A stretch of 64,000 bases of DNA from Patescibacteria group bacterium (GTDB lineage: Bacteria; Patescibacteriota; Minisyncoccia; Phycocordibacterales; PALSA-1337): the NCBI GenBank assembly GCA_028865095.1, contig JAGWLA010000001.1, forward strand, positions 47,244-111,243, in the 5' to 3' direction. The notes under the pieces were generated by a model. It was not told where the DNA came from, did not search any database, and was given only the letters and a program-made list of their open reading frames with translations. This document shows, piece by piece, positions 12,805-63,579 of the stretch (within the stretch, counting starts at the first letter, position 1; each line of letters begins with the position of its first letter). Made by a program: the position numbers and the translations under genes.

Positions 12805-15800
12805 ATGAAAAAATCGACCATATCGTTTATCTCGGCATTCGGCATCATCGCCTCTGCGTTCTTTTTGAGTCTTCCTAGCGCGGTTCAGACTGTGAATGCG
12901 CAAAGCGCCGCTTCGACAAGCCCTGTGCTAGCGATCAGACAGGTGCCCGTGACGCACCCTTTGCTTATCGGCGAAAAACAAGCCCTTTTCGCCTCTTTCA
13001 ATCTGAGCGCAGCCTCTTCCTCTAAGGATGCGATGATATTCCTCTTCAAGATGACCATACCGATGTCGTGGAGCTTTGGCGACAAGAACGGTCATGTCAC
13101 ATTGGCAGATGAGATAAGCAGGCTGTCTAACTGCGGCCTCTATTCTGGGGCTACCAAGCTGGCTTCCGGGCCCAATGGGATCGGTACCCCCGATACGGAG
13201 CAGCTTTTCCTCCTCAATTCTGGATCGGGCTTGACCGTGAAAGCCGGTACGCAGACCCAGATAGATTTCCGCTGCGATTTCTCGTCAGCCGCCATACCAT
13301 CTGGAACGACGTACAAATATGAGTGGACTCTGGATCCGAACTACACGGAAGTATGGTCGCCAGTGAACGGGGCACTTGCAGATTTCGGCCGTCCCATATA
13401 CGCGACCACGCAGACACCGACGATATCGACGGCCGAAGGCGCCTCGTCATATCCGGTCGTCGTCAATATCTATCCGCCAAGCAGCAGCAATTCCTATCAG
13501 GTCGGAAACACCGTCAATTTCGTGGCGCAGGCATCGACAATGACCGCCCCGGTCGCTTTCTCTTGGGATTTCGGTGACGGTCAAAGCGCTACTGCGCAGC
13601 AGATAGGACATACCTATTACAAAGCGGGGGCTTACAAGGCGACGGTCACCGCTACGGATAGCGCTGGCCATATCTCCGCGCCGGTAGTTACCGAAGTCAA
13701 TATAACGCAGGCCGATCAGAGCGGATGTTATTCGTTCACTCGCAATCTCGGCCTCGGGTCGACTGGCTATGACGTCGTCCTTCTCCAGAACTGGCTCATC
13801 GCTCACGGGTTCGACATCCAGGCCATATCGAGCGGTCAGCAGCAAAAAGGATATTTCGGTTATGAGACTTCAGCTGCTCTTCAGAGATACCAGGCTAGCA
13901 TAGGGCTCCCTGCCACGGGATTCTTCGGTTCCATGACCATTTCGGCGATCGGCTCTAGCTGCGTCTCGAACCCGACGGCCCAGTCTTCGGGGTCGGCATC
14001 TGGGGCACAGCTGAGCGCCTCGCTCGATTCCTCATCGCCTCTGTCGAGCACGATCCTGATATCCACGGGCAGCCAGACTCAGGATGTGCCTCTCGAGGTC
14101 TTCGACCTCAGATCGAATGGGGCCACCTCGACTCTTCAGGCATTGAAGATCGACATCAACACGACCGGCCAGCCTTTCCCATCCATATTCAGCAATATAA
14201 CCATCAAGATCGGCGGCCGCACCTACACACCCTCTTCCATGGTCTCAGCGCCAGGCGGGACATACGCTTACGCAGCATTCGAGAACCTCGGAGCCTATCT
14301 TCCGACGAACGAATATGTCCCTGTGACCGTCTATGGGACCGTCGCTCAAGATACGAACGGCTTCCTCGACGGGTCGACCGCGACAGCGAGCCTTTTCACT
14401 GCCAGCACGACGGCAGTAGGCGCGAACGCGGCCCCTGTCCCCGTGGCGAGCTACCTCCCGGTCGTCGGCAACCAGATGACGTTCACCTCGAGCGGCCTCA
14501 TGGTGACCAATACAGCGGTCTCTCTCGGATCCCAGTCGCCCTCATGCGGATCGGGGGCCAGCAACGTCCCGTGCACTCAGCCGGTCACGCTCTCCTTCTC
14601 TCTCACCGCGGGGAACTATCCGATGTATATCGCTGCGAGCGCAATGGGCGCGAGCAGCTGCCCCGTAGGATATACATGCTCCTCTGCGAGCCCCTTCGTC
14701 TTCGCTGGTAAGGCAGTGAATGTCGCCCCAGTCTTCGCTGGCTCTGTCGCTAGCCCGGCCCAATTGCCTGGCGATGGGCCCGGCAGCTATCTGATCCCTG
14801 CCGGCTCGACCCGTTCGTTCACATATTACGGCTCTGTGAGCAATGCTAATTTGGCGGGCGGTTCGTATCTGATCGCCGTCACTGGGATCAAGTTCGGGAC
14901 CTCGACATCGAACCTGTTCGTCGGCACGATCACGTCCGGTCTCGGCAACCTCGCTACCATGATCAATCTCCCGGCCGGCAATAATAACGGCGGAGGGAGC
15001 CCGATCTCCACTTCATCGCTGTCTATCGGCCCGAACGACCAGGTCCGCACCTTCACCAAATCCTTCATGGCGACCCCGTCGTCCGGCTCGGTGCTTCTGG
15101 CCATCGCTGGCGATAACAAATATCTGGCCATGATCAACGGCGTCCCTGTCGCCGTCACCAGCGGCGAGACGGGATTCTACAATCCGAGGATCGTCGACGT
15201 CACTTCCCATATCGTCCAGGGGAACAACACCATCCAGGTCATCGCCGATAACATGCCTGACGGCAATGGGGCATTCCCGTGGAGCACCAACCCGGGCGGC
15301 GTCATCTTCAAAGTCGCCGGCGGCTCTTGCACCTCGAGCGTCTATTGCCTGAACGGCACTGTGTACGCGGTCAGCAACGGGACCGAGGGCATCGACAGGG
15401 GCTCGTCTGCCGTCATACCGTCTAACCAGCTCTATCCTGCCTGGACTTCGATTCCTGGCGCAAGCTGGGTCTGGGATTCCAACCTGATGGGTTCGAGCTC
15501 GAGCCTGCAACCGACGATCAGCCTTACGATGGATTCCGGGAGCGTCATACAGGCGGGCCAGCATATCGACTTCACGTACACAGTCTCGCCCGCAGGGAGA
15601 TACGACGTGGTGTACATACTCGTCCCCAGCGCTACTACTCCGAGGAAATCGACCGGTGTCGGTTCGAATTACGACGCTTCGTGGGGCGGATATAACATAG
15701 GCGGCTTTTCGCCGAATTATTCGATCAGTAGTTTTACACCCTATGGCGGAATATATATTCCGAGCGATATCCCTAACGGCACGTACTCTCTGACGGTGTA

Positions 15801-16290
15801 CTTGGCCGCATCCGGAAGCACCACCGGAGGCAGCGAAAAGGTGCCGACTCTTGCAGCTGCTAATTCAGGGATGTTCACTGTCACATCTGGCACGACAGTC
15901 AACCAGGCTTCTGTCACCTGTCCCGGCGGCTATATCTGCGTCGTCAATGGCCAGACGCTGTCATGCCCGTCAGGATACGCCTGCTCCTACGCATCGTATA
16001 ACTGTCCTTCCGGTTACGTCTGCTATACCTATAACAAGCCGTATTCTTCGCCTGCGCCGGCTCCGACCCCGTCGCCTTCGCCTGCGAAGACGGTGACCAC
16101 GGTCACGAACCCGTCTCCGACGCCAACGCCAACGCCTACGCCGACCACGACGACAACTTCGACGAAACCTTCGCCGACGTCGAGCCCGTCAGGCAGCCCG
16201 TATCCGTCGTCGTCCTCGCAATCGCTCGGGAATGCGGCTACCCAGCCGGCATCGGCATGGCAAGCTTTCCTCCAGCTGTTCGGATTCTGA
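12805..16290 (+). CDS. Giant secreted surface protein (P2) with PKD domain, peptidoglycan-binding domain, Thr/Pro/Ser linker and repeated CPxGYxC motifs
   Basis: Signal peptide MKKSTISFISAFGIIASAFFLSLPSAVQTVNA. PKD-like FSWDFGDGQSA...TATDSAGH. PG_binding_1-like LGLGSTGYDVVLLQNWL...GYFGYETSAALQRYQ. TPSPSPAKT...PTPTPTPTPTTTTT linker. Confidence 0.75.
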   Translation: MKKSTISFISAFGIIASAFFLSLPSAVQTVNAQSAASTSPVLAIRQVPVTHPLLIGEKQALFASFNLSAASSSKDAMIFLFKMTIPMSWSFGDKNGHVTLADEISRLSNCGLYSGATKLASGPNGIGTPDTEQLFLLNSGSGLTVKAGTQTQIDFRCDFSSAAIPSGTTYKYEWTLDPNYTEVWSPVNGALADFGRPIYATTQTPTISTAEGASSYPVVVNIYPPSSSNSYQVGNTVNFVAQASTMTAPVAFSWDFGDGQSATAQQIGHTYYKAGAYKATVTATDSAGHISAPVVTEVNITQADQSGCYSFTRNLGLGSTGYDVVLLQNWLIAHGFDIQAISSGQQQKGYFGYETSAALQRYQASIGLPATGFFGSMTISAIGSSCVSNPTAQSSGSASGAQLSASLDSSSPLSSTILISTGSQTQDVPLEVFDLRSNGATSTLQALKIDINTTGQPFPSIFSNITIKIGGRTYTPSSMVSAPGGTYAYAAFENLGAYLPTNEYVPVTVYGTVAQDTNGFLDGSTATASLFTASTTAVGANAAPVPVASYLPVVGNQMTFTSSGLMVTNTAVSLGSQSPSCGSGASNVPCTQPVTLSFSLTAGNYPMYIAASAMGASSCPVGYTCSSASPFVFAGKAVNVAPVFAGSVASPAQLPGDGPGSYLIPAGSTRSFTYYGSVSNANLAGGSYLIAVTGIKFGTSTSNLFVGTITSGLGNLATMINLPAGNNNGGGSPISTSSLSIGPNDQVRTFTKSFMATPSSGSVLLAIAGDNKYLAMINGVPVAVTSGETGFYNPRIVDVTSHIVQGNNTIQVIADNMPDGNGAFPWSTNPGGVIFKVAGGSCTSSVYCLNGTVYAVSNGTEGIDRGSSAVIPSNQLYPAWTSIPGASWVWDSNLMGSSSSLQPTISLTMDSGSVIQAGQHIDFTYTVSPAGRYDVVYILVPSATTPRKSTGVGSNYDASWGGYNIGGFSPNYSISSFTPYGGIYIPSDIPNGTYSLTVYLAASGSTTGGSEKVPTLAAANSGMFTVTSGTTVNQASVTCPGGYICVVNGQTLSCPSGYACSYASYNCPSGYVCYTYNKPYSSPAPAPTPSPSPAKTVTTVTNPSPTPTPTPTPTTTTTSTKPSPTSSPSGSPYPSSSSQSLGNAATQPASAWQAFLQLFGF

Positions 16291-20156: not shown

Positions 20157-20211
20157 TGCACCCATCATTTTGCTTTTGTTTTTTTAGGCTAGCTATATAC
20201 TTTGTGGCGTA

Positions 20212-23200
20212 TCATGATCCTCTTGGCACAAAATCATCGGAGCATGAGCCTCATGCGTTTGGCGTATGTATCAGTGGCGGCGGTGCTCCTGTTTTTTGTT
20301 TCGGCGCAGATGGCTCGCGCCGACACGTCTTCCGGCCTCATAGGATGGTGGCAGTTCGATGAAGGGTCGGGCAGCACCACCGCCGATTCCAGCGGCTTCG
20401 GCAACGACCTGACGGTCTCCGGCCCTGCATGGGTCTCGGGCCAATCGGGGCAGGCGCTCTCGTTCAACGGCACAAGCGATGTCCTCGATCTCGGGAAGCC
20501 GATCCTTCCCGCGCTGCCGTTGGCGAGCTCGACGACGTTCTCGGCGTGGGTCAAGACCGTCGACCCTGTGCATTGGGCTGGCATCGTGTCGCAGTATAAG
20601 ACTCTCGGCGGCGCATATATCATCCTCCGGGTCAGGCTCGATAACGGCGCCGCCGATTTCACCTTCAAGGATGTCAACGCGAACGAGGTCGAAGCGGTCG
20701 GCACGACCGACCTGCGGGACGGTTCCTGGCATCTCGTCACGGGCGTGATCGACCGTTCGAACAGGCTGGCGCATGTCTACGTGGATGGCGCCGAAGAGGG
20801 GACGCCCGCGCCCGACACGACCAACATCGACATGTCGTTCCCATCGCCGAACAGGGACCTCCAGATCGGCGCCAACCAGACGGGTTTCTTCTCCGGGTCG
20901 ATCGACGATGTCAGGGTGTACGATCGCGCCCTGTCGGCCACGGATGTCGCCGAGCTCCATGCCAATGCCGGCCCTCCTATGCTCACGCTGCAGTCCGCCT
21001 CGCCGGTCAGCTCGACCACGGCGACCCTCAACGCCACGATCATCTCGACCGGCAGCAGCACGGTGACGGTCCGCGGCTTCGAATATGGGGCGACGACGAC
21101 ATATGGAAGCCTCCTCTCGGAGACCGGGAGCTACGGGACCGGGTCGTTCGCTCTGGGCGCGTCGGCGCTGGCGTGCGGCACGACCTATTACACCCGCGCC
21201 TTCGCGACGAACCAGTACGGCACCGCTTCGAGCACGGGCGGCAGCTTCACGACCTCCGCGTGCCCGATGACGCTGCCGGCTGTCGAGAGCTCGTCGACCG
21301 TCTCTGACATCACCCAGTCGTCGGCCACCCTCAACGGCGCCATCGTCTCGAGCGGGAACGGCACGATCACTCAGCACGGGTTCGTATATGGCACGGCTTC
21401 GAACCTCTCGGGCACGGTCGCCACGACGACGGGCGGCCAGTTCGTCGGCACGGGCCCCTTCATATCGTCCTCGGCTCGGCAGATCGCCGGCCTCTCATGC
21501 AACACGACGTACTATTTCGAGGCGTATGCCACTAATGCCATGGGCACGAGCTACGGCTCGATCCTGTCGTTCCAGACCGGGGCATGCTCATCCGGGGGCT
21601 ATTCCGTGTATTACGTCGACCAGGCGTCCGGCAATGACGCGAACGCATGCTCGATAACGTCGAAATGCGCCACCATCGGAGAGGGCATATCGAAGCTTCA
21701 TGCGGGCGACACGCTCGTCATAAGCTCGGGCACGTATCATGAATATATCAACAATTCCATCCCGTCCGGCATCAATTGGGATTCGCCGACGACCGTCGAG
21801 GCCGCTCCGGGCGCGACGGTCGTGCTGGCGCCGACCCTCGCGCAGAACCCGTACCGCGCTCTCTATTTCAGCGGGGCCGGGGTATCGTATATCGTCGTCA
21901 GCGGGCTTACGCTCGATGCGACGAACGTGCAATATGAAGCCGTGAAGGTGACGACGGGGGCCAACCATGTGCGCCTTTCCAATATGGAGATAAAGAATGC
22001 CCCGACTATGGGCATCCTCATGACCGATGACGGTACCTCGTACAACGAGGTCATCGATTCGTATATCCATGACAACGGGAATGATCCGGGCGGCAACGGC
22101 CTCCTGCACGAGATCTATCTTTCGACCAATGCGAATATCATCGACGGCAACACCCTCGATTGCGGGGCGCTCAATCCGGGAGGGAAGGGCATACAGCTCT
22201 ATGGTTCGACGGGCATGAATGACAATATATTCCGCAACAATGTCATCAGAGACTGCTCGACGGGCATAGGCGTATTCGGAGGCACCGGCAACCTTGTCTA
22301 TAACAACATCCTCTACCACCTTCTGATCGGGGTCCAGCTCCAGGGATACGAGGCGCTCGATGGTGCCGGGGTGTATAACAATACGATCTATGACATGTAC
22401 CAGACGGTGGATGGCGGCGGCGTCGGCATCAATGCGGTGAATTCAGGCCTCGGCACGAGCCATGTCAACATCGAGAACAATATCGTGTACCTTTCGTCTT
22501 CGACGCCGGTCATCAATAACAGCGTCGGAGGGGTCACTTCCAACAATCTGACCTCTAACCCCGGCTTCACCGATCCGGCCGCCCATGATTTCAGCATCTC
22601 TTCGACCAGCCCCGCCGTCGATGCGGGCGTGCCGGTGAACGGCGTCGCCGTCGACATCCTTGGCGTGAACCGTCCGCAAGGCTCCGCATACGACATCGGC
22701 GCATATGAATATTTCAGCTCCTCGAACGTGACGGCTCCTACCGTCGGCCAGTCGACGATAACGAGCATCACTGAGTCGTCGGCGTATCTGACGTCCTCTA
22801 TATCGTCGATCGGGGGCAGCGCTGCCACGGCGAGAGGGTTCGTGTTCGGCAGCACGACCGTGTATGAGGCCGGCACAAGCACGGAAGCGGGAAGCTTCCA
22901 GGCCGGCGGGTTCTCTGTCGCATTGAACGGCCTTGCATGCGGCGCTTCGTATCATGTGCGCGCATACGCGGCGAATGTCGCCGGCGTTTCATATGGCTCT
23001 GACGCGACATTCACGACGAGCCAGTGCGCTTCTCCCGATTCCTCGACGACTGACCAGACAGGCGGCGGCTCGACAGGCGGCGGCGGAGGAGGAGGCGGAG
23101 GAGGCGGCGGCTCGACAGGCGGCGGAGGCGGAGGAGGCGCTGCGTACAACGCGCCTACGGCGACGGTCCTTTCCCCTACGTCGGCGCTCGTCTCCTGGAA

Positions 23201-23984
23201 TACGTACATGCCTTCTTACGGCAAAGTCTATTACGGACGATCTGCGGGGTCATACACGGCCGCAACTTCATCCGCAGAGATCGTCACTGCCCATTCCTTC
23301 ATCTTGTCCGGCCTCGTCCCGAATACGCTGTACCACTACTACATATCCTCTACCGTTCCGGGCGGCGCTATAAGCGCTTCGCCCGACCATGCTTTCACGA
23401 CGGCGACCGGTACAGCGGCCGGGGCGGCGCTCCCCGCGCCCGTACCCGGCTGTCCTGCCGGAATGGTCTGTACGCCTATACCGGGATATTCCGCAGCGTC
23501 AGAGCAGAATTTCACCCGCGATCTCACGATCGGTTCCCGGGGAAGCGACGTGAGCGCTCTTCAGGATATCCTCATCTCGGCGGGCCATCTGGCGCAGAAC
23601 CTCAAGACCGGCTACTTCGGGCCTCTTACGCAGTCGGCCCTGGCAAAATATCAGTCCGCGAACGGCATCGTGCCGGCATCGGGGTACTTCGGGCCGATCA
23701 CCCGAGGCTTCTTGGGAGGGGCATCGGCAGCTTCGCCCGCTCCGGCGCGGTCGGCATCGCCGTCTTTCTCGAGAGATCTCACTGTCGGTTCGAGAGGCTC
23801 AGACGTCACCATTCTCCAGGCCATCCTTATAGGACAAGGGTTCTTGGAATCCCGTTATGCTACCGGCTACTTTGGGCCTCTTACGCAGTCGGCCCTGGCA
23901 AAATATCAGTCCGCGAACGGCATCGTGCCGGCATCGGGGTACTTCGGGCCGATCACCAGGAATCGGCTGACATCGTCGCATTGA
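20212..23984 (+). CDS. Giant secreted surface protein (P3): LamG-like lectin domain, FN3 repeats, right-handed beta-helix, poly-Gly linker, two tandem peptidoglycan-binding domains
   Basis: Signal peptide MRLAYVSVAAVLLFFVSAQMARA. LamG-like GLIGWWQFDEGSG...DDVRVYDRALS. Beta-helix repeats (NNVIRDCSTGIGVFGG...). GGGSTGGGGGGGGGGGGSTGGGGGGG linker. Two PG-binding repeats at the C-terminus. Start could be 20202 (GTG), 20212 or 20241. Confidence 0.75.
23611..23955 (+). repeat. Two copies of a 93-bp near-identical direct repeat (1 mismatch) about 250 bp apart, duplicating the PG-binding domain
   Basis: GGCTACTTCGGGCCTCTTACGCAGTCGGCCCTGGCAAAATATCAGTCCGCGAACGGCATCGTGCCGGCATCGGGGTACTTCGGGCCGATCACC occurs at 23611-23703 and 23863-23955. 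Confidence 0.8.
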
Positions 23985-40020: not shown

Positions 40021-41841
40021 TCAGATCACCGGCGCAGTGGTGAGGCCGAATTCTCCGGTCTCCTGGCTGTTCCCGTTCGCGTCGACCGACTTTATGATGA
40101 AGCGATAGGACGTGCCTGCGGAAAGCCCGGAGACGGTCACTTCATGGCTAGCGGCCAGCGACGGATCGACGACCGCTTGGGTGGAGCTCGCTCCGATGAC
40201 GACCGGAGAGGACGTCGAGTAGTAGACCTCGGAATCCGCGTCATCGGCGGTATCCCACGTGAGCTTGACCGAGCCGGTCCCTACGAGAGCCATGGCGTTC
40301 GATATCGTCGGGCTGGTCGAAGCGGTCGTAGTGGCCGCTGCCGCCGTCGAGAAGCTTATCTCGGAAGACGTGGCGGCTCCGGCGGCATCAGACGATCGCA
40401 CCGCGACATAGTACAGCGTCGAAGGGGAGAGGCCGGTCAGGACGATCGAATGGTTGGTGATCGAGGAAGGGTCGCTCGCAGAGAGCGTCCCCGCGCCTCC
40501 GATGACCGGCGACGAGGTCGAATAATAGGCCGTCGAATCGGAGCTCTGGTCGGTGCTCCAGCCGATGGCCGCGGTCGAGGTGCCGATGGCCGAAGCGTTG
40601 AGGCCGCTGATGACCGGAACGGATGCGGTGCTCGAAGCGGCCGTCACTTCGATGGCCGTGCTCGACGACGTCGTCAGGCCGGAAGCGTCCTTAGCGGTGA
40701 AGGTCACGGTGTAAGTCCCGGTCGCGGCGTATTCATGAGAGAACGTCGACGTCTGGAGATACACGGGCTGTCGGGCTACGAGAGCCATGAATCGCATGGC
40801 CGGCTGGTCGCCCCAGTCGACGCTGTATGACAGCGGCTGGTCCTGCGGGTCATACGCGTCGACCGACCATGTGCCTTGTTCGCCTGCAGTCAGGGAGCCT
40901 GGTCCGGCGACCGATGTTATGACCGGAGGCTTGGCGTTAGCCGGCGTAGGCGTGACGAACGATATCTCCGATGACGTGCTCATGGCGCCGTTCGGGCCTT
41001 TCGAGCCGACGACCGCGAAGTAGGTCGTGGCGCTCTGCAGGCCGGTCAAGCGGACGGCGTGGTAGAAGACATCGCCGACATGCTCGATCTGCGGCGCGCC
41101 GGACGTGTCGACAGGCGAGGAGGTCCCGTACCAGACCTCGCTATCCGAGCGCTCGTTCGTCTTCCATGCGATGGTCGCCGAAGAGGGACGCGTAGACGTG
41201 GCGCTCAAGCCCGATATGACGGGTCCCGAAGAAGAGGACGCTATGTTCACGGTCACCGACGACGTCGTGGTCAGGCCGGCGCTGTCCTTGACCGTGAAGG
41301 TCACGGTGTAGACGCCGGGCGACGAGTATTCATGGGAGAAGGAGGCGGTCTGGACGAAGACCGGCTGCGCGGCCAGGAACGCCATCCAGCGTGGGCTCTC
41401 GCCCCAGTCGACCGAGTAGCTAAGGGTCCCATTCTGCGGATCAGAAGCGCTCACCGTCCAGGTGCCGGTCTGGCCTGGCTGAAGGACGGTCGGCGACGAT
41501 ATCCCGCTGATGACCGGCGGAAGGGCTGATGTCGGCGTGGTAGGCCCGGGCGTCTGGCTGCCGTCATCGCTTCCGGCGCTGTCATCGTCCCCGTCGGCTT
41601 TTTGGCCGTCGGCCGACAGCGGCTGACCGTTCGATGCGGCTATGGAGAAAGAAGGGTGGTTCTTATTCCACCCCGGCGCGATGGCGTGCCCGAGAGCGCG
41701 GCCGTTATCTTCGCCCTTAGTCGCCGCGAAGGCGGCGAGCGAAGGCGATGCCAGCGCGAGGACGGATGCTATGGCTCCTGCGATGGCGAGGCCCTTTGCG
41801 GTCACTGATCGGTGCTTATCTCGATGTGATTGATTCATCAT
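40021..41841 (-). CDS. Large secreted surface protein (P4) with three FN3 and two PKD-like repeat modules
   Basis: Signal peptide. Repeated ISGLSA...WKTN/WSTD...YFAV/YYVAV FN3 modules and two YSVDWG...FSHEY...YTVTFT PKD-like modules. Confidence 0.7.
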   Translation of the reverse strand: MMNQSHRDKHRSVTAKGLAIAGAIASVLALASPSLAAFAATKGEDNGRALGHAIAPGWNKNHPSFSIAASNGQPLSADGQKADGDDDSAGSDDGSQTPGPTTPTSALPPVISGISSPTVLQPGQTGTWTVSASDPQNGTLSYSVDWGESPRWMAFLAAQPVFVQTASFSHEYSSPGVYTVTFTVKDSAGLTTTSSVTVNIASSSSGPVISGLSATSTRPSSATIAWKTNERSDSEVWYGTSSPVDTSGAPQIEHVGDVFYHAVRLTGLQSATTYFAVVGSKGPNGAMSTSSEISFVTPTPANAKPPVITSVAGPGSLTAGEQGTWSVDAYDPQDQPLSYSVDWGDQPAMRFMALVARQPVYLQTSTFSHEYAATGTYTVTFTAKDASGLTTSSSTAIEVTAASSTASVPVISGLNASAIGTSTAAIGWSTDQSSDSTAYYSTSSPVIGGAGTLSASDPSSITNHSIVLTGLSPSTLYYVAVRSSDAAGAATSSEISFSTAAAATTTASTSPTISNAMALVGTGSVKLTWDTADDADSEVYYSTSSPVVIGASSTQAVVDPSLAASHEVTVSGLSAGTSYRFIIKSVDANGNSQETGEFGLTTAPVI

Positions 41842-42137: not shown

Positions 42138-42674
42138 ATGATGAACCACTCTCATATGAGCTCGCGCTTCACTGCCCGTTACGAGGCCGACGCGGATTCG
42201 GTGTTCCGTTTCTGCTTCTTGAGGGTGTCCGACCGCGAGCTGGCGCTGGACATCACCCAAGAGACCTTCGGGCGGTTTTGGAGGAGCTTGAGCGGGGGAG
42301 AGGATATCGCGAACGAAAGGGCTTTCTTGTTCACCGTGGCCCATCGGCTGGTGATAGATTGGTATCGCCGCAAGAAGGCGGCCCGGCTCGAAGACCTGAC
42401 GGGCGCGGACGGCGAGCCGTATGACCCGCCCGACGAGAAGACGCTCGACAGCCTCGGCCTCGAGGCGGAGGGCAGGTTCCTCGCCGATGCGATATCCAAG
42501 ATCGACGGCTCCAATCGGCACGCCGTCTATCTCCGCTTCATCGAAGGGCTGTCGCCCCCGGAGATCGGGGAGGTGCTCGGCATATCGACGGGCGCAGCAT
42601 CGGTCAGGGTGAGCAGGGGATTGGCAGAGCTTAAGAAGATAACGGGATACGACGACATCGACGAACATGAATAA
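42138..42674 (+). CDS. ECF (sigma-70 family group IV) sigma factor
   Basis: Region 2 (AFLFTVAHRLVIDWYRRKK) and region 4 HTH (LSPPEIGEVLGISTGAASVRVSRG). Confidence 0.8.
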   Translation: MMNHSHMSSRFTARYEADADSVFRFCFLRVSDRELALDITQETFGRFWRSLSGGEDIANERAFLFTVAHRLVIDWYRRKKAARLEDLTGADGEPYDPPDEKTLDSLGLEAEGRFLADAISKIDGSNRHAVYLRFIEGLSPPEIGEVLGISTGAASVRVSRGLAELKKITGYDDIDEHE

Positions 42675-43773
42675 CACACGGATGAAAGGGAAAAGCTTCG
42701 AGAAGGCCTTGCGGCAATTCAAGAAGGTTGGCATGACCGATGCCGAGAAGGCCGCCGTCCTGCGCCGCTCGACGGCGGGGGGCGACGGTTTCTTGCCGCC
42801 TGCGCATCCGGCCGCGCCGCGCCGGAAGCCGATCCGGAGCCCGTGGACGGTATACTCCGTGGCTCTCTGGATGAGAGAGCGGCGCGAATGGTCGTACGCT
42901 CTCGCGGCAGTCGCCGTCGTCAGCCTCTCGACGGGAGGGGTGGCATTCGCGGCCCAAGGCGCTCTGCCGGGGGACGCGCTCTATCCAGTGAAAGTCGACG
43001 TCACGGAGCCTCTGCAGACGGCCCTGACGTTCTCGGCCGAAGGCAAGGCCCAGCTCGCCGCCGATCTCGCCGTCGAGCGCATGAAGGAGGCCCAGGCGCT
43101 GGCCTCCAAAGGACAGCTCGACGCCTCGAAGCAGCAGGAGATACAAGCCCTTTTCGATGCCCATACAGCCGCCCTCTCGATGAGCCTGGCGACGATCAAG
43201 GCGTCGGATCCTTCCGCGGCCAAGAGCATCGCTGCCCGGTTCCAATCCGATATGCTCGACCAGGCGCAGGAGCTCGACAGGATATCCGGGGCGACATCGA
43301 GCCTCCCCGTCCTTGCTCGTGTCCCGACCGAAGCCCGCCCCGAATCTCCTTCTCGCGCCGCCCCGTCAGCCTCTCCGGCGCCGTCGCCAATCGAGGCCGC
43401 AGAGCAGGAGGAGCGGCTCCCGTCGCCGGCCGTCCGCGTGCTCTACGTGGCCCCCTCGCCCTCGCCTTTCTCTTCTCCGACGCCTCTCCCTTCTCCGGCT
43501 CTTCAGCCCGCCGTCGCACCTTCTCCTTCGCCGACCCCGTCTCCTTCGCCGACCCCGTCTCCGAGCCCGCGAGGCAAAGAAGGAGCCGACCAAGGCGACC
43601 AGGCATCCGCTCAAGCCCTGTCGGAGGCGGCGAAGCGCGCCGCCGCGGCTTTCGGAGAAGGGGATGCCCTGATCAGCGGCGACCATCATGCGGATGACCA
43701 TGCGGGTGACGGCGCGGATAACGGCGGCCATCGCTGGCCGGGGCATGTCGATCTCCGCGAAAGAGGCGATTGA
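42667..43773 (+). CDS. Anti-sigma factor-like membrane protein (single TM, periplasmic DUF5667-like domain, Pro/Ser-rich tail)
   Basis: 8-nt overlap with the sigma factor gene. TM helix WSYALAAVAVVSLSTGGVAFA. Low-complexity tail SPSPTPSPSPTPSPSP. Confidence 0.6.
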   Translation: MNNTRMKGKSFEKALRQFKKVGMTDAEKAAVLRRSTAGGDGFLPPAHPAAPRRKPIRSPWTVYSVALWMRERREWSYALAAVAVVSLSTGGVAFAAQGALPGDALYPVKVDVTEPLQTALTFSAEGKAQLAADLAVERMKEAQALASKGQLDASKQQEIQALFDAHTAALSMSLATIKASDPSAAKSIAARFQSDMLDQAQELDRISGATSSLPVLARVPTEARPESPSRAAPSASPAPSPIEAAEQEERLPSPAVRVLYVAPSPSPFSSPTPLPSPALQPAVAPSPSPTPSPSPTPSPSPRGKEGADQGDQASAQALSEAAKRAAAAFGEGDALISGDHHADDHAGDGADNGGHRWPGHVDLRERGD

Positions 43774-55705: not shown

Positions 55706-56068
55706 GGGGATGATCGGCATAGACAATCGCCGGCGTCCGTTCGTGCGGCTCGAGCTCCGATGACTCGTAAATCCGTCGGAAACTCCGAAATGCCAACGTC
55801 AAATCGCCGTATTTCTCGGCACGCGACTTCGCATTCGCCCTCGCTTAAGTAGGGCGCGTCTCCTCGAGGGGATCCATACCTTGAGGCTGATGTCATAACC
55901 CGGATGTAGGGCAGGGCGCCTTCTCACCGCCCGGCCCGAAACAATGAGATCGCGGCCATGCGTTCTGCTCGATCTTCGAGCATGTCCGTCAGACTTAAGA
56001 TCGCGCTACAGCCGTAGAGTCGTCCGGTTCGCCTCGATTGCACGCGGGTTCGATTCCCGCCATCTCCA
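55706..56068 (+). ncRNA. ssrA: tmRNA (SsrA), immediately downstream of smpB
   Basis: 5' GGGGAUG acceptor pairs with 3' CAUCUCC + A. tRNA-like T-arm GGGUUCGAUUCCC. Resume region AAAUGCC AAC GUC... gives the predicted tag ANVKSPYFSARDFAFALA ending at UAA. CCA is not encoded. Confidence 0.8.
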
Positions 56069-56079
56069 CAACGACAAAA

Positions 56080-56567: not shown

Positions 56568-57839
56568 ATGACCACGCCAGAGCTCGTCGCATTCATCAAG
56601 GAACAGAAAGCCAAGGGCGTGCCGCGCGAAGCGATATCGGCCATGCTCTCGGGGCAAGGCTGGACGGTCGCCGACATCGAAGAGGGGATGGCGACCGCCG
56701 AGCCGGCGCCAGCCCCGTCATCGTTGCCGCCTGTCCCGCCCGCTCCGGCGGCCCCTGCCATGCGGCCGGCTATGCCGAGCGCTCGGGCTCTCTCGCCGCT
56801 CTCGTCGAGGCATGCCCACGGCGCGAAGCTCTTCGCGGCGATCATCGCCGCCATCGTCGTCTGCCTCGGCGGAGCGGGCGCGTATGCGTACTATCAGCTG
56901 GTGGTCGCGCCGACGCCCTCGGCATCGGAGCTCATAAGCCAGGGCATGGCGAACACATTGGGCAATATAAGCTCGGCCCGCTTCGAGGCGACCACCACGG
57001 GGACGGTCTCGGGCGCGTCCATCGCGGGGAATCCGCCGTTCTCGTCCTCGTTCTCTTTCGAGGCGGCGGGATCCTTCAGCGGCTCCGTCGTCGACGGCGC
57101 CCCTTACAACAAGCTGTCGTCCGACATCAAGGCACATGCGACGTTCGATGTAGGGACGAGCACCGGCTCTCTGGCCGTCGATGCCAAGGCCATCGTCATC
57201 GGGAAAGACTCGTATCTCTATATCAACGACGCTTCGGTCTCGTACCGTTCGTCCGACCCGAAGCAGGCGTTCGTCCAGGGGATGGTCGGAGCGGTGAACG
57301 GCTTCCTGCCCTCGTTCGAAGGGAAGTGGATACTGGCTCCGGCCGCCTCTTCGACGGTCGCCCAGCCGGCATTCGATGCGGCTGATGTGGCGGCGATGCA
57401 GAGCTATATCAAAAGCTTGGGCTATGTGCGCTCGGCTTCCGTCGTCGGGAGCGATTCGATCGGCGGAGTCCCGTCATATCATGTCGCGGCCTCTCTTCAG
57501 GATGACGGAGGGTTCGCTTCTCTCGTGCGCTCGCTCATGGTGAAGCGCGAGCCGTCGCTCGCCACCACCCCGGCATTCGAGAAGGGCATGGCGAGCTTCA
57601 AAGCGGCGTCGGAACAGCCGATCAGCCTCGATCTGTGGGTAGGGAAGGCTGACGGGCGCATCCATCGGATATCGCTGTCGGGGATCTCCTATGCGGACGC
57701 TTCTACGGGAGCGGCCGTATCGTTCGATACCGACATCGAGCTCGATCAGCAGGGCCAGCCGGTGGACATAGCCGCTCCTCAAGGCGCAGTGACCATGCAG
57801 GCGCTCATCCAGAGCATGTTCGGCGGCCGGCCTCTATGA
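56568..57839 (+). CDS. Hypothetical membrane-anchored protein (N-terminal soluble domain, Pro-rich linker, TM, large extracytoplasmic domain)
   Basis: TM helix AAIIAAIVVCLGGAGAYAYYQLVV. No family recognised. Confidence 0.5.
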   Translation: MTTPELVAFIKEQKAKGVPREAISAMLSGQGWTVADIEEGMATAEPAPAPSSLPPVPPAPAAPAMRPAMPSARALSPLSSRHAHGAKLFAAIIAAIVVCLGGAGAYAYYQLVVAPTPSASELISQGMANTLGNISSARFEATTTGTVSGASIAGNPPFSSSFSFEAAGSFSGSVVDGAPYNKLSSDIKAHATFDVGTSTGSLAVDAKAIVIGKDSYLYINDASVSYRSSDPKQAFVQGMVGAVNGFLPSFEGKWILAPAASSTVAQPAFDAADVAAMQSYIKSLGYVRSASVVGSDSIGGVPSYHVAASLQDDGGFASLVRSLMVKREPSLATTPAFEKGMASFKAASEQPISLDLWVGKADGRIHRISLSGISYADASTGAAVSFDTDIELDQQGQPVDIAAPQGAVTMQALIQSMFGGRPL

Positions 57840-58519: not shown

Positions 58520-59077
58520 ATGAATGCATATATCGTCGGTATGGCGCTCGGCGCCGCGGCGATGGCCGCGCTCTTCCGGGTCGGCCATCAATTCAGAAAA
58601 GCGCTCACGCGCCCTTGCCCGACATGCGGGAGGCTCATATTCAAGGCTGCGCTGCATTACCTTTCGGTCAGCGCCGAGTCTCATATCCCTCGCAGGTGGT
58701 GGATCTATTGCGATACCGTCACCATCCGCCTCTGCGCGATGAGGCATATCAACATCAAGACCGACACGCGGTGGATCTCTGTCTGGGCATGGTATTGGCG
58801 CAAGCTATTCCATCCTGACCATTTCATCATGACTCCGTATAAGGCGGACTGTCTGAAAGCCAAGGATGGATATGGCCGGTCGATGCCCCCGGCGAGCCGG
58901 CTGAAGATCCGCATCAAGACCCTCGGCATCCCCGGATCTGACGGCTTCGGCCAGGCGCTGAAGCCCGTCCGCCATGCGGATAGCCTGAGCGTCTCGCCGA
59001 GGATGGCGTTCTTCCGCGAGCAGCTCCGTCGTCGCGAAGGGACCCATCGCCTCGGCGATCATGGCGATCCGCGATGA
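58520..59077 (+). CDS. Hypothetical protein with N-terminal TM and a CPTCGR zinc-ribbon-like motif (weak)
   Basis: Moderate GC3 bias. Competes with a minus-strand ORF 58805-59464. Low confidence that it is coding. Confidence 0.25.
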   Translation: MNAYIVGMALGAAAMAALFRVGHQFRKALTRPCPTCGRLIFKAALHYLSVSAESHIPRRWWIYCDTVTIRLCAMRHINIKTDTRWISVWAWYWRKLFHPDHFIMTPYKADCLKAKDGYGRSMPPASRLKIRIKTLGIPGSDGFGQALKPVRHADSLSVSPRMAFFREQLRRREGTHRLGDHGDPR

Positions 59078-59181
59078 ACGCGCCCCTCCGATCTTTTGTC
59101 TTTTGCGCTTACGCGGCCGGCTCGGCCGCTTTTTTGTTGCCTGCCCGCCGTGCCCGGCGGCTTTCAATTCCGGCCGGATTC

Positions 59182-59189
59182 TGTATAAT
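59182..59189 (+). promoter_or_regulatory. Extended -10 (TGTATAAT) 6 nt upstream of the ftsH ATG (leaderless)
   Basis: CTGTATAATCCATCCATG. Confidence 0.5.
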
Positions 59190-59195
59190 CCATCC

Positions 59196-61136
59196 ATGCC
59201 TCCTCTATCCTCGAACGGCCGTTCCGGCCGCCCGCAGCGCTCGGGCGGGAAGGACAGCCGTCCTCCCAATCGCTTTTTCCGGCCTCGCTGGGGCTTCCTC
59301 AACATCGTGGCCACGGTGGTGCTCATATTCCTGCTCATATCGGGCATATATGCCGAATACGCGGGCCAGTCGCAGGCGGTGCCGACCGTGCCGCTTTCGA
59401 CCATCGCCCAAGGCGTCAAAGACGGGTCGGTCTCTGCGCTCGTCATCCAGGACACGACCGTCACCGCTACCTACGCCGACAAGTCGCAGAAGAACGCCCA
59501 GATAGAGCCGAACTCGTCCCTGACCGGCTCGCTCGAGCGCTTCGGGGTGACCGCGGCCGAGCTGGCTTCGACCACGGTCTCCGCGTCCCAGCCCAGCGGG
59601 CTCTTGTACTGGACCGAGCAGCTGGCGCCGTTCATCATCCCGCTGGTCGGCTTGATCCTCTTCGTGTGGCTCATATCGCGCCAGATGCGGGGAGCGGGCA
59701 TGGCCGCGCTGTCGTTCGGGCAGTCGAAGGCGCGCGTCACCCTTCCCGAGGACCAGAAGCAGCGGGTCACGTTCAAAGACGTGGCGGGAGCCAAGGAAGC
59801 CAAGCAGGAGCTGTCGGAGATCGTCGACTTCCTGAAGAACCCGAAGAAATTCCTCGACATCGGCGCCGTCATCCCGAAGGGCGTCCTGCTCATGGGCGCT
59901 CCGGGCACGGGCAAGACCTTGCTCGCCCGGGCGGTCGCCGGCGAGGCGGGCGTGGCTTTCTTCTCGATATCGGGCTCCGAATTCGTGGAGATGTTCGTCG
60001 GCGTGGGAGCGAGCCGGGTGCGCGACCTCTTCAAGATGGCCAAGGAAGTGGCGCCGGCCATCGTCTTCGTGGACGAGATCGACGCCGTGGGCCGCGCCCG
60101 CGGGGGAGGCTTCGGCGGCTCGAACGACGAGCGCGAGCAGACCCTGAACCAGATCCTGGTGGAGATGGACGGCTTCGAGCCGAACGAGAAGGTCATCGTC
60201 ATGGCGGCCACCAACCGGCCCGACGTCCTCGATCCGGCCCTCCTGCGGCCGGGGCGCTTCGACCGCCGGGTAGTCATCGACCTGCCCGACCGGAGCGACC
60301 GCGAGGAGATCATGAAGATCCACGTCTCCAAGAAGCAGCTGGCCGAGGACGTCAACCTCAAGGTCTTGGCCGAGCGCACGCCCGGCTTCTCCGGCGCCGA
60401 CCTCGCCTCTCTCACCAACGAGGCGGCCATCCTGGCGGCCCGCGAAGGGCGGACGTCCATCGGCCAGTTCGATTTCATACGCTCGATAGAAAAGGTCATG
60501 CTCGGCCCGGAGCGCAAGAGCCATGTCCTGTCTCCCCATGAGAAGGAGATCACCGCTTACCATGAGGCGGGCCACGCGATCATCGCCTCGGTCCTGCCGA
60601 ACGCCGACCCGGTCCATAAGATATCCATCATCTCCCGCGGCCGGGCGGCGGGTTACACCCTCAAGCTGCCGTTCGAAGACCGCAAGCTCCAGTCCCGCAA
60701 GGAGTTCCTGGACGACATCGCCGTGTCGCTCGGCGGCTACGTCGCGGAGATGGCCATGTTCGACGACTTGACGACGGGCGCATCGAACGACCTCCAAGTG
60801 TCGACGGCCCTCGCCCGCAGCATGGTGACCCAATACGGCATGTCCGACAAGATCGGGCCGGTGGCTCTCGAGAGCTCGCAGGGAAGGGCGATGTTCGGCA
60901 TGGGCGTCGGCGACAAGGAATATTCGGAGAAGATGGCGGCGGAGATCGACAGCGAGGTCAACCGCATCATGACGGAAGCCCGCGCCACTGCGGAGAAAGC
61001 CTTGAAAGGGCATACGAAAGCCTTCGAAGCGGTGGCCAAGCGCCTGATCGAGGCGGAGACGATCGAGCGGGAAGAGTACGAGGCCCTTCTCGCCGCCAAC
61101 GGCATCATGGTCAGGAAAGAGGCGAAAGCGGCGTGA
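59196..61136 (+). CDS. ftsH: ATP-dependent zinc metalloprotease FtsH
   Basis: AAA Walker [14 protein letters not shown], second region of homology, HEAGHA zinc site. Start at MPPLSSNG; the track ORF upstream from 59061 is not coding. Confidence 0.93.
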
Positions 61137-61182
61137 GCCGGGCGCTTCCTTTCGCCGCCGTTTTGGTCTAAGCTATCAGCGA

Positions 61183-61256
61183 CCGCCCCTAGCTCAGTTG
61201 GTTAGAGCATCGAGCTTATACCTCGAGGGTCCTTGGTTCGAATCCAAGGGGGCGGA
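61183..61256 (+). tRNA. tRNA-Ile with anticodon UAU (reads AUA)
   Basis: Cloverleaf: acceptor CCGCCCC/GGGGCGG, U8, D-arm GCUC-AGUUGGUUA-GAGC, anticodon stem UCGAG/CUCGA, loop CUUAUAC (U33, anticodon UAU, A37), variable loop GGGUC, T-arm CUUGG-UUCGAAU-CCAAG, discriminator A. CCA not encoded. Confidence 0.8.
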
Positions 61257-61266
61257 CAGCATAGAG

Positions 61267-63579
61267 CTACTCGAAATGGATGGTATCGCCGTATGATGCG
61301 GCGCCGGCCGCCAGGGAAGGGTAGCGGGAAAGGGACCGGTCCTCGTCGACGAGGCGGGCCGCTTCGGCGCGGGCGGCTTCGACGAGCCGGAGGTTCTTCA
61401 AGGCGTCCATGGCCAGGTCCGACACGCCCCACTGGCGCGCTCCGGAGAGCTGGCCGGGGCCGCGCTGCTGCATGTCCGCTTCGGCCAGCTCGAAGCCGTT
61501 CTTGGCGGTCTTGAGCGCTTTCAGGCGCTCGACGGACTTCTCGCTGGTGGCCTCGGCGAAGCAGTAGCAATACGCCTGGTGCGAGCTGCGCATGACCCGG
61601 CCGCGGAGCTGATGGAGCTGGGCCAGGCCGAAGCGCTCGGCTCCTTCGATGACGATGACGGTGGCGTTGGGCACGTTGACGCCGACCTCGACGACCGAGG
61701 TCGAGCAGAGGATGCGGATGCGCCCGTCGGCGAACTCCTTCATGGCCCGGTCCTTCTCCGCCGGCTTCATCTTGCCGTGGAGGATGCCGATCACATATTC
61801 GGGGAAGACGCTCTCTTTGAGGCGGGCGGCCTCTTCCTTGACCGACCGGGCCACCACGGCGGCTTCCTTGTCGGGGTCGGGCTCGTCGATGCGGGGGCAT
61901 ATGACGTACGCTTGCCGGCCTTCCCGCAATTCCTGCCGGATCCTCTCATATGTCTCGTCGCGCTTGGACGGATAGACGATCTCGGTGACGATCGGCTTCC
62001 TGCCGGCGGGCGATTCGTCGAGGAGGGTGAGGTCGAGGTCGCCGTACAAGGTGAGCGCCAGAGTGCGGGGGATGGGGGTGGCGGTCATGGAGAGGAGGTG
62101 GGGGACCGGAGGGCGGAAAGGCTCCTCAGGGAACGGGTGTCGCGCCTGCTGGCGCGCACCCTCGTTCTCGGACGCCTTCGCGTCCTCCGAAAGTCCCTTC
62201 GAAGCCTTTCCGCCCCCTGGTCCCTCGTCCCCCTTCTTGACCAGCTTCGCCCGCTGCTTCGTGCCGAAGCGGTGCTGCTCGTCGATGACGACGAACGCAA
62301 GGTGCTTGAACCGGACGGCTTTCTGGATGAGGGCATGGGTGCCCACGACCGCCGCGATCTCGCCATTCTCGATCCACGACAGGAGCTGGCTCCGCGATAT
62401 GTCGGTCCATCCTTTCGGGTTGACCTTCGACGGGAAGATCCGGCAGCCGGACGAGGTGATGAGGGCGATGCGGATGGGCAGGTAGGAGAAATACCGGATG
62501 AACGACTCGAATTGCTGGGCGGCCAGGATCTCGGTAGGGCACATGTACGCCATCTGGAGCGAGCCGAACTTCTGGCGGGCCCGCGCCCCGTTCGCGCCGA
62601 CGACGCTCGGCGGGGTGGTGATCGCCGCGAAGGCCGCCGCCGCGGCCACGGCTGTCTTGCCGGAGCCGACGTCGCCTTCGAGCAGGCGGGCCATGGCTTC
62701 GCCGCGGCCGAAATCCTTGAGGATGGCGTCCACGGCGCGCCGCTGGGCGGCTGTCATCTCGAACGGGAAGCGCCGGACGAATTCGTCGACCTGGCGGCGC
62801 TCCGGCTCGATGACGAACGCCGGGTCGGCGCGATAGGCGGCCCGCGCCCTCTGGCGGGCGAGCTGGATCAGGAATATCTCCTCGAACGCGAAGCGCTTGC
62901 GCGCCGCCTCGGCGTCCTCTTTCTTCATGGGCATATGGATCCAGATGAGGGCGGTGCGGAGGCTCGGCAGCTTGTAGCGGACGAGGATGTGGCCGGGCAG
63001 CGGGTCGTCGATGCCGTCGAGGATGCCGCTCTTGAAGAGCTTGTCGACGGCGTGATATATCCAGGCCGAGCTCACGCCGCGCGATTCGGGATAGACGGGG
63101 TAGAGGCTGTGGGCGGCCCCTTCGTCCCCGAAGAGGGAATCGCCGACGCCGGTCGGCAGCTTGTTCACGACCTCGATCTTGGGATTGGAGAGATAGAGCT
63201 CGCCGGTGCCGCGCCGCTCGGAGACCTTGCCCTCGATGCGCACGGCGGCGCCCTCGGGGGTCATCGAGGCGAGGTACGGCTGGTTGAACCAGACGCAATG
63301 GATGCGGCCGGTCTCGTCCTCGACCGTGCCGTCGGCCATGGCCACTTTGGTCTTGAAGCCCTTGGAAGCCTTGAGACCGGTGATCTTGCCGAAGATGACG
63401 GCGGTGTCGCCTTTGCCGAGGCTGTCGATGCTGCGCGACGCCACGGCATCGCCGTAGCGGGACGGGAAATGGTAGAGGAGGTCGCGGACCGAGGCTATGC
63501 CGAGGCGGGCCAGGGCGTCGCGCTGGGGCGGGGTGAGGCGGAAGCGGTCGGTGACGGGGGTGTCGAGAGTGAGCGCCAT
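61267..63579 (-). CDS. recG: ATP-dependent DNA helicase RecG
   Basis: Wedge/OB N-terminal domain and SF2 helicase motifs (GDVGSGKT, VIDEQHRFG, MTATPIPRTL). About 40-aa low-complexity insertion between motifs II and III. Confidence 0.9.
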   Translation of the reverse strand: MALTLDTPVTDRFRLTPPQRDALARLGIASVRDLLYHFPSRYGDAVASRSIDSLGKGDTAVIFGKITGLKASKGFKTKVAMADGTVEDETGRIHCVWFNQPYLASMTPEGAAVRIEGKVSERRGTGELYLSNPKIEVVNKLPTGVGDSLFGDEGAAHSLYPVYPESRGVSSAWIYHAVDKLFKSGILDGIDDPLPGHILVRYKLPSLRTALIWIHMPMKKEDAEAARKRFAFEEIFLIQLARQRARAAYRADPAFVIEPERRQVDEFVRRFPFEMTAAQRRAVDAILKDFGRGEAMARLLEGDVGSGKTAVAAAAAFAAITTPPSVVGANGARARQKFGSLQMAYMCPTEILAAQQFESFIRYFSYLPIRIALITSSGCRIFPSKVNPKGWTDISRSQLLSWIENGEIAAVVGTHALIQKAVRFKHLAFVVIDEQHRFGTKQRAKLVKKGDEGPGGGKASKGLSEDAKASENEGARQQARHPFPEEPFRPPVPHLLSMTATPIPRTLALTLYGDLDLTLLDESPAGRKPIVTEIVYPSKRDETYERIRQELREGRQAYVICPRIDEPDPDKEAAVVARSVKEEAARLKESVFPEYVIGILHGKMKPAEKDRAMKEFADGRIRILCSTSVVEVGVNVPNATVIVIEGAERFGLAQLHQLRGRVMRSSHQAYCYCFAEATSEKSVERLKALKTAKNGFELAEADMQQRGPGQLSGARQWGVSDLAMDALKNLRLVEAARAEAARLVDEDRSLSRYPSLAAGAASYGDTIHFE

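Follow-up and report, generated by a model that had tools for sequence, protein, structure and literature searches.

The window analyzed here, a 64,000-nt stretch of DNA with a G+C content of ~62%, carries a single tRNA gene by ARAGORN: a tRNA-Ile with anticodon tat, called at 61183-61257 (+). The gene occupies the 130-nt gap separating the convergent ftsH and recG genes (Table 1). It starts 46 nt after the ftsH stop codon and lies on the same strand, whereas recG is convergent with it and reaches its own stop codon 10 nt past the tRNA 3′ end. Farther upstream of ftsH are smpB, tmRNA, a secreted protein without assigned function, and a DedA-family protein. The remainder of the window comprises EF-G, EF-Tu, and a large ribosomal-protein cluster extending up to secY, with transporters and surface proteins interspersed. 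This gene content identifies the window as core chromosome and not a mobile element, and base composition around the tRNA region is unremarkable.

Table 1. Positions of the features discussed, in window coordinates except for the tRNA-Ser(ACT) genes, which are given in the coordinates of the related locus named
Feature	Position	Strand	Evidence or annotation
tRNA-Ile(UAU), 74 nt to discriminator A73	61183-61256	+	ARAGORN and Rfam RF00005
Anticodon loop C32-U33-U34-A35-U36-A37-C38	61215-61221	+	Sequence; invariant in 22 homologs
ftsH	59061-61136	+	Pfam Peptidase_M41, AAA, FtsH_ext
recG	61267-63579	-	Pfam RecG_wedge, DEAD, Helicase_C, RecG_dom3_C
185-aa ORF upstream of ftsH	58520-59077		Appears spurious
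423-aa ORF upstream of ftsH	56568-57839		Membrane-anchored, Ala/Ser-rich, without family match
tmRNA	55706-56071	+	Rfam, 106 bits
EF-Tu/S10, ribosomal proteins, secY cluster	24160-48760		Broken up by unrelated genes
Cluster insert	28627-32144		HlyD, ABC ATPase, MacB-type permease
Cluster insert	32582-33898		Ornithine/DAP-type decarboxylase
Cluster insert	40021-41841		606-aa PKD/fibronectin surface protein, on the opposite strand; one of four large proteins
Cluster insert	42138-43773		Sigma factor and DUF5667 protein
Large protein	8123-10393		One of four (606-1260 aa)
Large protein	12805-16290		One of four (606-1260 aa); peptidoglycan-binding domain in addition
Large protein	20202-23984		One of four (606-1260 aa); peptidoglycan-binding domain in addition
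tRNA-Ser(ACT), locus L004	4101-4188		Class II
tRNA-Ser(ACT), locus L011	7500-7589		Class II
tRNA-Ser(ACT), locus L012	56-145		Class II
tRNA-Ser(ACT), locus L014	1252-1340		Class II
tRNA-Ser(ACT), locus L017	877-966		Class II
tRNA-Ser(ACT), locus L025	8194-8281		Class II

Several other features of the window were recorded. The tmRNA gene, directly after smpB, was overlooked by ARAGORN, although the program finds tmRNAs in several relatives; its tag, read by eye as ANVKSPYFSARDFAFALA, resembles the tags of relatives. The four unrelated inserts of the ribosomal-protein cluster are listed in Table 1, and translation from the first start codon would give the ribosomal proteins S19 (345 aa) and L23 (160 aa) long extra segments at the N-terminus. 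Four large proteins carrying PKD, fibronectin-III, laminin-G, or purple-acid-phosphatase-N domains form a probable cell-surface set that is dense for a small genome.

In form, the tRNA-Ile(UAU) is an ordinary tRNA. Its sequence divides as CCGCCCC-TA-GCTC-AGTTGGTTA-GAGC-A-TCGAG-CTTATAC-CTCGA-GGGTC-CTTGG-TTCGAAT-CCAAG-GGGGCGG-A, giving a 7-bp acceptor stem with C1-G72 as its first pair, U8 and A9, a D-stem GCUC/GAGC, an anticodon stem UCGAG/CUCGA, a 5-nt variable loop, a T-arm loop UUCGAAU, and discriminator A73. No CCA is encoded; CAG follows A73. The Rfam tRNA model RF00005 scores 68.3 bits (E = 8.9e-13; gathering score 29), covers its whole length, and flags no non-canonical pairs. The first-pass annotation had described a clean tRNA-Ile with a TAT anticodon and had proposed ARAGORN as a check: ARAGORN returns exactly that call, Rfam agrees, and the anticodon reads directly from the sequence at 61217-61219. 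A scan for promoters and terminators around the gene found no consensus sites.

We placed the window phylogenetically with RecG, which also served as the anchor for retrieving related loci from a species-level genome collection. Its closest relatives, at 50 to 75% identity, are without exception metagenome-assembled Patescibacteria bins, labeled Parcubacteria, Paceibacteria, Minisyncoccia, Taylorbacteria, Nomurabacteria, Adlerbacteria, or Lloydbacteria. The window therefore derives from a high-G+C member of the Paceibacteria, an ultra-small bacterium of the candidate phyla radiation.

The tRNA gene is widely conserved among these relatives. A tRNA-Ile(tat) lies close to recG in 21 of 30 Paceibacteria loci from related genome bins; the remaining nine, all devoid of ftsH, either stop at recG or are no longer syntenic. 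Wherever ftsH is near recG (14 of 14 related loci), the tRNA lies between the two, and seven of these 14 share the arrangement of the window, with the tRNA on the strand of ftsH and at most 125 nt from the ftsH 3′ end.

Sequence variation among the homologs follows the cloverleaf. We aligned 22 homologs (21 distinct sequences) and scored them on cloverleaf pairs. All 441 sequence-by-pair cells hold standard pairs, and 15 of the 21 pairs show both-sided, compensatory changes. The covariation score is 0.736, against 0.187 for column shuffles and at most 0.15 when the partners are slid. Invariant positions include U8, A9, the entire D-stem, G53, T54, T55, C56, and A73, as well as all seven positions of the anticodon loop CUUAUAC. 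The tRNA-Ile(UAU) is thus a real gene under structural selection across the class.

The same survey of related loci brought up a second unusual tRNA outside the window. Six Paceibacteria loci hold a well-formed class II tRNA-Ser with anticodon ACT, and thus with A34, adjacent to or not far from the usual tRNA-Ser(GCT) (Table 1); its loop, TTACTAA, is conserved and its stems carry compensatory changes. Apart from Arg-ACG, bacteria very rarely use anticodons that start with A, and tRNADB-CE lists only three for serine. If A34 were deaminated to inosine, this tRNA would also read the arginine codon AGA.

We next compared the tRNA with what is known of isoleucine identity. The E. coli IleRS identity elements described by Nureki et al. 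in 1994 are reportedly A73, C4-G69, U12-A23, C29-G41, and A38. Among the homologs, A73, U12-A23, A35, U36, and A37 are invariant, and C4-G69 occurs in 20 of the 21 distinct sequences; in contrast, every homolog has C at position 38, and the 29-41 pair shows free variation (G-C in the window). Three of the E. coli elements are thus present and two are absent, under rules that may not transfer to Patescibacteria. What reading within the AUN box requires is in place: A35 and U36, together with A37, the site of t6A, in a loop (CTTATAC) identical in all 22 homologs. Identity-element analysis, to which the first-pass annotation had left its isotype call exposed, gives a mixed picture: A73, U12-A23, C4-G69, and A37 fit isoleucine, whereas A38 and C29-G41 are missing. 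A BLAST comparison with all E. coli genomes was set aside as an isotype test; it placed tRNA-Val and tRNA-Arg on top at 73 to 84% identity, a level of generic tRNA similarity.

The meaning of the codon itself was read from protein alignments. We aligned recG from 29 Paceibacteria with 40 outgroup RecG proteins from other phyla and tallied the outgroup residues facing each codon. Positions with ATA (399 codons) face isoleucine, leucine, valine, and methionine at fractions of 0.33, 0.21, 0.15, and 0.05; the corresponding values are 0.34, 0.19, 0.16, and 0.05 for ATC (675 codons) and 0.32, 0.18, 0.15, and 0.04 for ATT (484 codons). ATG (470 codons) differs clearly, at 0.12, 0.16, 0.09, and 0.36. 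Because the ATA profile matches those of ATC and ATT and is unlike that of ATG, we conclude that AUA codes for isoleucine in this lineage.

AUA is also a frequently used codon. Across 26 confident genes of the window (12,005 codons), isoleucine is encoded by 539 ATC, 116 ATA, and 4 ATT codons, so that AUA supplies 18% of isoleucine codons and AUU 0.6% at ~62% G+C; over all called ORFs, ATA reaches ~11 per 1000 codons. Apart from ATA, codons of the form NTA hardly occur (CTA 4, TTA 9, GTA 34). The first-pass annotation had suggested inspecting AUA usage in highly expressed genes; that AUA is common here is an outcome it had not anticipated. ATA makes up 15.7% of isoleucine codons in ribosomal-protein and elongation-factor genes and 19.1% in other genes, a difference that is not significant, and we therefore dropped the idea of expression-level selection against AUA.

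Related loci follow the same tendency. Among high-G+C relatives (L002, L003, and L024; GC3 0.65 to 0.77), ATA accounts for 20 to 23% of isoleucine codons and ATT for 6 to 14%; among low-G+C relatives (L004, L006-L009, L011, and L012; GC3 0.24 to 0.45), the shares are 38 to 49% for ATA, up to 44 per 1000 codons, and 24 to 42% for ATT. An Anaerolineae control (L031; GC3 0.78) gives 2% ATA and 18% ATT. Some Bacteroidota loci, presumably equipped with TilS, are ATA-rich as well, so high ATA usage alone does not prove a special decoder. The persistence of AUA at high G+C may have a mutational component: AUU would be easily turned into AUC by a transition under G+C pressure, whereas the ways out of AUA would be limited to a transversion and a nonsynonymous step to AUG. 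AUA would then persist because it is hard to leave and is served by a cognate tRNA of its own.

Third-position T in the window depends on context in a way that simple G+C pressure does not explain. Counted over all genes, TAT makes up 54% of tyrosine codons and CAT 55% of histidine codons, but T is scarce elsewhere, with ATT at 0.6%, GTT at 2%, AGT at 0.3%, GGT at 3%, and CGT at 3% of their families.

We then looked for the components of the lysidine system. A six-frame scan of the window for the PP-loop motif SGGxDS returned only a chance SGGKDS in the FtsH N-terminus and no TilS-like ORF; the same scan of 80 related loci found no TilS, its one hit being a TtcA-like ORF from Clostridia. In tblastn, neither TilS nor IleRS of E. 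coli matched anything in the window or in the related loci (~1.2 Mb of a single genomic neighborhood), and no tRNA with a CAU anticodon occurs in the window or the related loci, which cover one region of the genome. A protein-database search with E. coli TilS brought up only Enterobacteria among the matches listed.

In most bacteria, tilS lies just 5′ of hpt-ftsH. Upstream of the window ftsH, neither tilS nor hpt is present, and neither the window nor any of the related loci has a TilS homolog near ftsH. Two ORFs at this site were considered as TilS and rejected: the 423-aa ORF and the 185-aa ORF, for the properties given in Table 1. Both solutions to AUA decoding are thus linked to ftsH, which may be coincidence: the UAU tRNA follows ftsH immediately on its 3′ side, in the same orientation, at 59061-61256 in the window and likewise in L003, L004, L008, L009, L011, L012, and L025.

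Complete genomes provide a broader view. PMC13011429, a 2026 study of tRNA introns, lists in its Table S2 per-amino-acid tRNA counts from tRNAscan-SE 2.0 and ARAGORN for 95 complete Patescibacteria genomes, without anticodons; the counts relevant here are given in that paper and not discussed. We cross-tabulated the tRNAscan-SE "Ile" count against the ARAGORN "Met" count, on the assumption that ARAGORN "Met" takes in every CAT tRNA and that tRNAscan-SE "Ile" omits the CAT-anticodon Ile2. The two counts are reciprocal: 40 genomes have at least two Ile and at most two CAT genes, 50 have one Ile and at least three CAT genes, five have at least two Ile and at least three CAT genes, and none has one Ile and at most two CAT genes. 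The two-Ile, few-CAT pattern describes 14 to 15 of 20 Paceibacteria, all Microgenomatia and Dojkabacteria, and half of the ABY1 genomes, whereas the one-Ile, three-CAT pattern prevails in Saccharimonadia (34 of 36), JAEDAM01 (7 of 7), and Gracilibacteria (3 of 5). Paceibacteria are a mixed class, with the canonical pattern in 5 of their 20 complete genomes.

We infer that the second "Ile" gene in these genomes is the UAU tRNA, a reading that the 21 TAT genes found directly support. On that reading, genomes with a UAU tRNA would lack a third CAU tRNA about 9 times in 10, and TilS would therefore be left without a substrate. The reciprocal pattern across the 95 genomes argues that the UAU tRNA replaces the lysidine-dependent tRNA, and the lysidine system has likely been lost in the source genome. 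Of the explanations that the first-pass annotation offered, absence of tilS is the most probable.

Three other accounts of the locus were weighed. One is that the gene is an artefact or a non-functional copy, through a sequencing error at position 34, decay to a pseudogene, or import on a phage or other mobile element; tRNA-Ile(UAU) genes are indeed known on phages. Against this account stand an identical anticodon loop in 21 independent assemblies, perfect pairing with many compensatory changes, a stable chromosomal slot between ftsH and recG, and the unremarkable base composition of the region. Invariance and covariation together rule out sequencing error, pseudogene, and recent import, and with them the prospect, raised in the first-pass annotation, that the anticodon is really CAT: the 21 independently assembled relatives share TAT in an invariant loop. 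We give this account almost no weight, and equally little to a second, in which AUA has been reassigned and the tRNA carries another amino acid, for example methionine as in many mitochondria. The ARAGORN isotype label does derive from the anticodon alone, and the tRNA body has no informative nearest E. coli isotype, its best matches being tRNA-Val and tRNA-Arg. Reassignment is nevertheless hard to reconcile with ATA-aligned residues that are the same as those for ATC and ATT and clearly unlike those for ATG, or with the fit of A73, C4-G69, U12-A23, and A37 to the isoleucine identity set.

The third account deserves more consideration, though we regard it as unlikely: tilS and a tRNA-Ile2(CAU) would also be present, and the tRNA-Ile(UAU) would be an extra reader of AUA, a role suggested for it in Lactobacillus casei, Cyanothece, and Ferrimonas. 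Both systems do coexist in some bacteria (PMC3575796), and 5 of the 95 complete Patescibacteria genomes combine at least two Ile with at least three CAT genes. Against this stand the 40 of 45 genomes with at least two Ile genes that have no more than two CAT genes, and in two of the five exceptions tRNAscan-SE labels two tRNAs as elongator Met. Small genomes of ~0.5 to 1 Mb would also seldom be expected to keep redundant systems, and the usual site of tilS by ftsH holds no homolog in the window or the related loci.

We therefore favor replacement over redundancy. In our judgment, the Paceibacteria member sampled here probably has a functional tRNA-Ile(UAU) that decodes AUA through a Watson-Crick U34-A pair and serves as its main, and probably only, AUA decoder in place of tRNA-Ile2(CAU) and TilS. 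By analogy with Mycoplasma mobile and a Bacillus subtilis tilS-deletion suppressor, U34 is probably unmodified, which would give strong binding to A and weak binding to G. In both organisms, the cognate ribosome allows an unmodified U34 to bind strongly to AUA but only weakly to AUG (PMC3575796; PMC3919564). The first-pass annotation had offered a specialized U34 modification as one way to avoid AUG misreading; nothing here supports it, and U34 is unmodified in both of the bacterial cases studied by experiment. AUG would be kept from being read as isoleucine by competition from tRNA-Met, with the ribosome or the invariant C32/C38 loop possibly contributing; C32 and C38 are candidates for tuning an anticodon made up entirely of A and U.

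Such a tRNA would also place demands on its synthetase. E. coli IleRS tolerates U34 poorly, with ~1% efficiency (PMC3575796). Acceptance is achieved in M. mobile by a Trp-to-Arg change in the synthetase and in Bifidobacterium and Neorickettsia by a eukaryote-type enzyme (PMC3575796); the residue that contacts the wobble position is Trp905 in E. coli numbering, and Arg or Lys in its place would mark a U34-adapted enzyme. The isoleucyl-tRNA synthetase of the present lineage would accordingly have to accept U34, either as a bacterial-type enzyme with a basic wobble-contact residue or as a eukaryote-type enzyme.

The locus can be compared with several known systems. The closest parallel is the tRNA-Ile2(UAU) of M. 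mobile (Taniguchi et al. 2013, PMC3575796), in which an encoded UAU anticodon likewise reads AUA as isoleucine in a reduced genome and the lysidine pathway appears to have been replaced and not supplemented. In M. mobile, however, the unmodified U34, the Trp-to-Arg synthetase, and ribosomal rejection of AUG have been demonstrated experimentally; M. mobile is also an isolated case in its phylum and has a very different G+C content, while the tRNA described here is common to a large part of a phylum-level radiation and occurs in this window at ~62% G+C. Species of Bifidobacterium and Neorickettsia without tilS are a further comparison (PMC3575796; PMC8450103), and Bifidobacterium is similarly G+C-rich, but these organisms belong to unrelated phyla and own a eukaryote-type isoleucyl-tRNA synthetase.

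The B. subtilis suppressor (Kohrer et al. 2013, PMC3919564) carries tRNA-Ile1 with G34 changed to U and establishes that an unmodified U34 suffices for reading AUA with little misreading of AUG, the mechanism we assume here. It is, however, a laboratory mutant of the major isoleucine tRNA; the tRNA-Ile(UAU) of Paceibacteria is natural and anciently conserved, with a signature of its own in C32, C38, and an invariant D-arm. The canonical tRNA-Ile2(CAU) with TilS-made lysidine reaches the same end, decoding AUA as isoleucine without reading AUG, but from a C34 anticodon and with an essential enzyme. An archaeal counterpart exists in the tRNA-Ile3(UAU) of Nanoarchaeum equitans and Korarchaeum cryptofilum (PMC8450103): in these deep-branching organisms with small genomes, some of them symbiotic, a UAU tRNA likewise takes the place of a CAU tRNA and the enzyme that modifies it, although in another domain and with agmatidine and TiaS, not lysidine and TilS, as the system replaced.

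Bacterial tRNA-Ile(UAU) is an established kind of tRNA; what is new is a large Patescibacteria lineage of members, and the interest lies in this phylogenetic breadth together with unusually heavy AUA use at high G+C. The species known in 2013 to combine a missing tilS with a tRNA-Ile(UAU) numbered nine, from three clades (PMC3575796). A figure of ~98% is quoted for the annotated genomes that have tilS, and recent papers continue to treat the bacterial UAU tRNA as an exception, a 2026 preprint speaking of "rare cases". The first-pass annotation had likewise called a UAU tRNA-Ile rare, which is correct for bacteria as a whole and among sequenced cultured ones (17 of 4036 genomes, tRNAscan-SE 2.0 survey; PMC8450103) but not for this lineage, given its presence in 21 of 30 Paceibacteria loci. 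Our literature search found no paper tying lysidine, tilS, or UAU decoding to the candidate phyla radiation or Patescibacteria. Taniguchi et al. also reported 371 distinct TAT-anticodon tRNA genes of unassigned origin in metagenomes and proposed that UAU decoding is the primitive state (PMC3575796).

A wider reading of these data is tentative, and we place it somewhat short of even odds: lysidine-free AUA decoding may be standard in most Paceibacteria, Microgenomatia, Dojkabacteria, ABY1, and WWE3 (~40 of the 95 complete genomes), with lysidine kept in Saccharimonadia, Absconditabacteria-like lineages, and some Gracilibacteria, and with the C32/C38 loop, the synthetase, and perhaps the ribosome co-adapted against AUG misreading. 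How AUA (Ile) is told apart from AUG (Met) is a classic question of genetic decoding, and TilS, regarded as near-universal and essential in bacteria, has for that reason been seen as a possible antibiotic target. If the wider reading is true, the view that lysidine use is almost universal in bacteria would not hold for a sizeable share of bacterial diversity, and Patescibacteria would be a likely source for the hundreds of unassigned metagenomic TAT-anticodon tRNA genes. Pipelines for annotation and for estimating genome completeness that expect tRNA-Ile2(CAU) and tilS would mark such genomes as incomplete for something they never needed. A rare exception would turn into a major alternative for AUA decoding, and a single phylum holding both systems could be used to study how one replaces the other, its internal split offering a natural system in which to test the proposal of Taniguchi et al. 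that UAU decoding is primitive.
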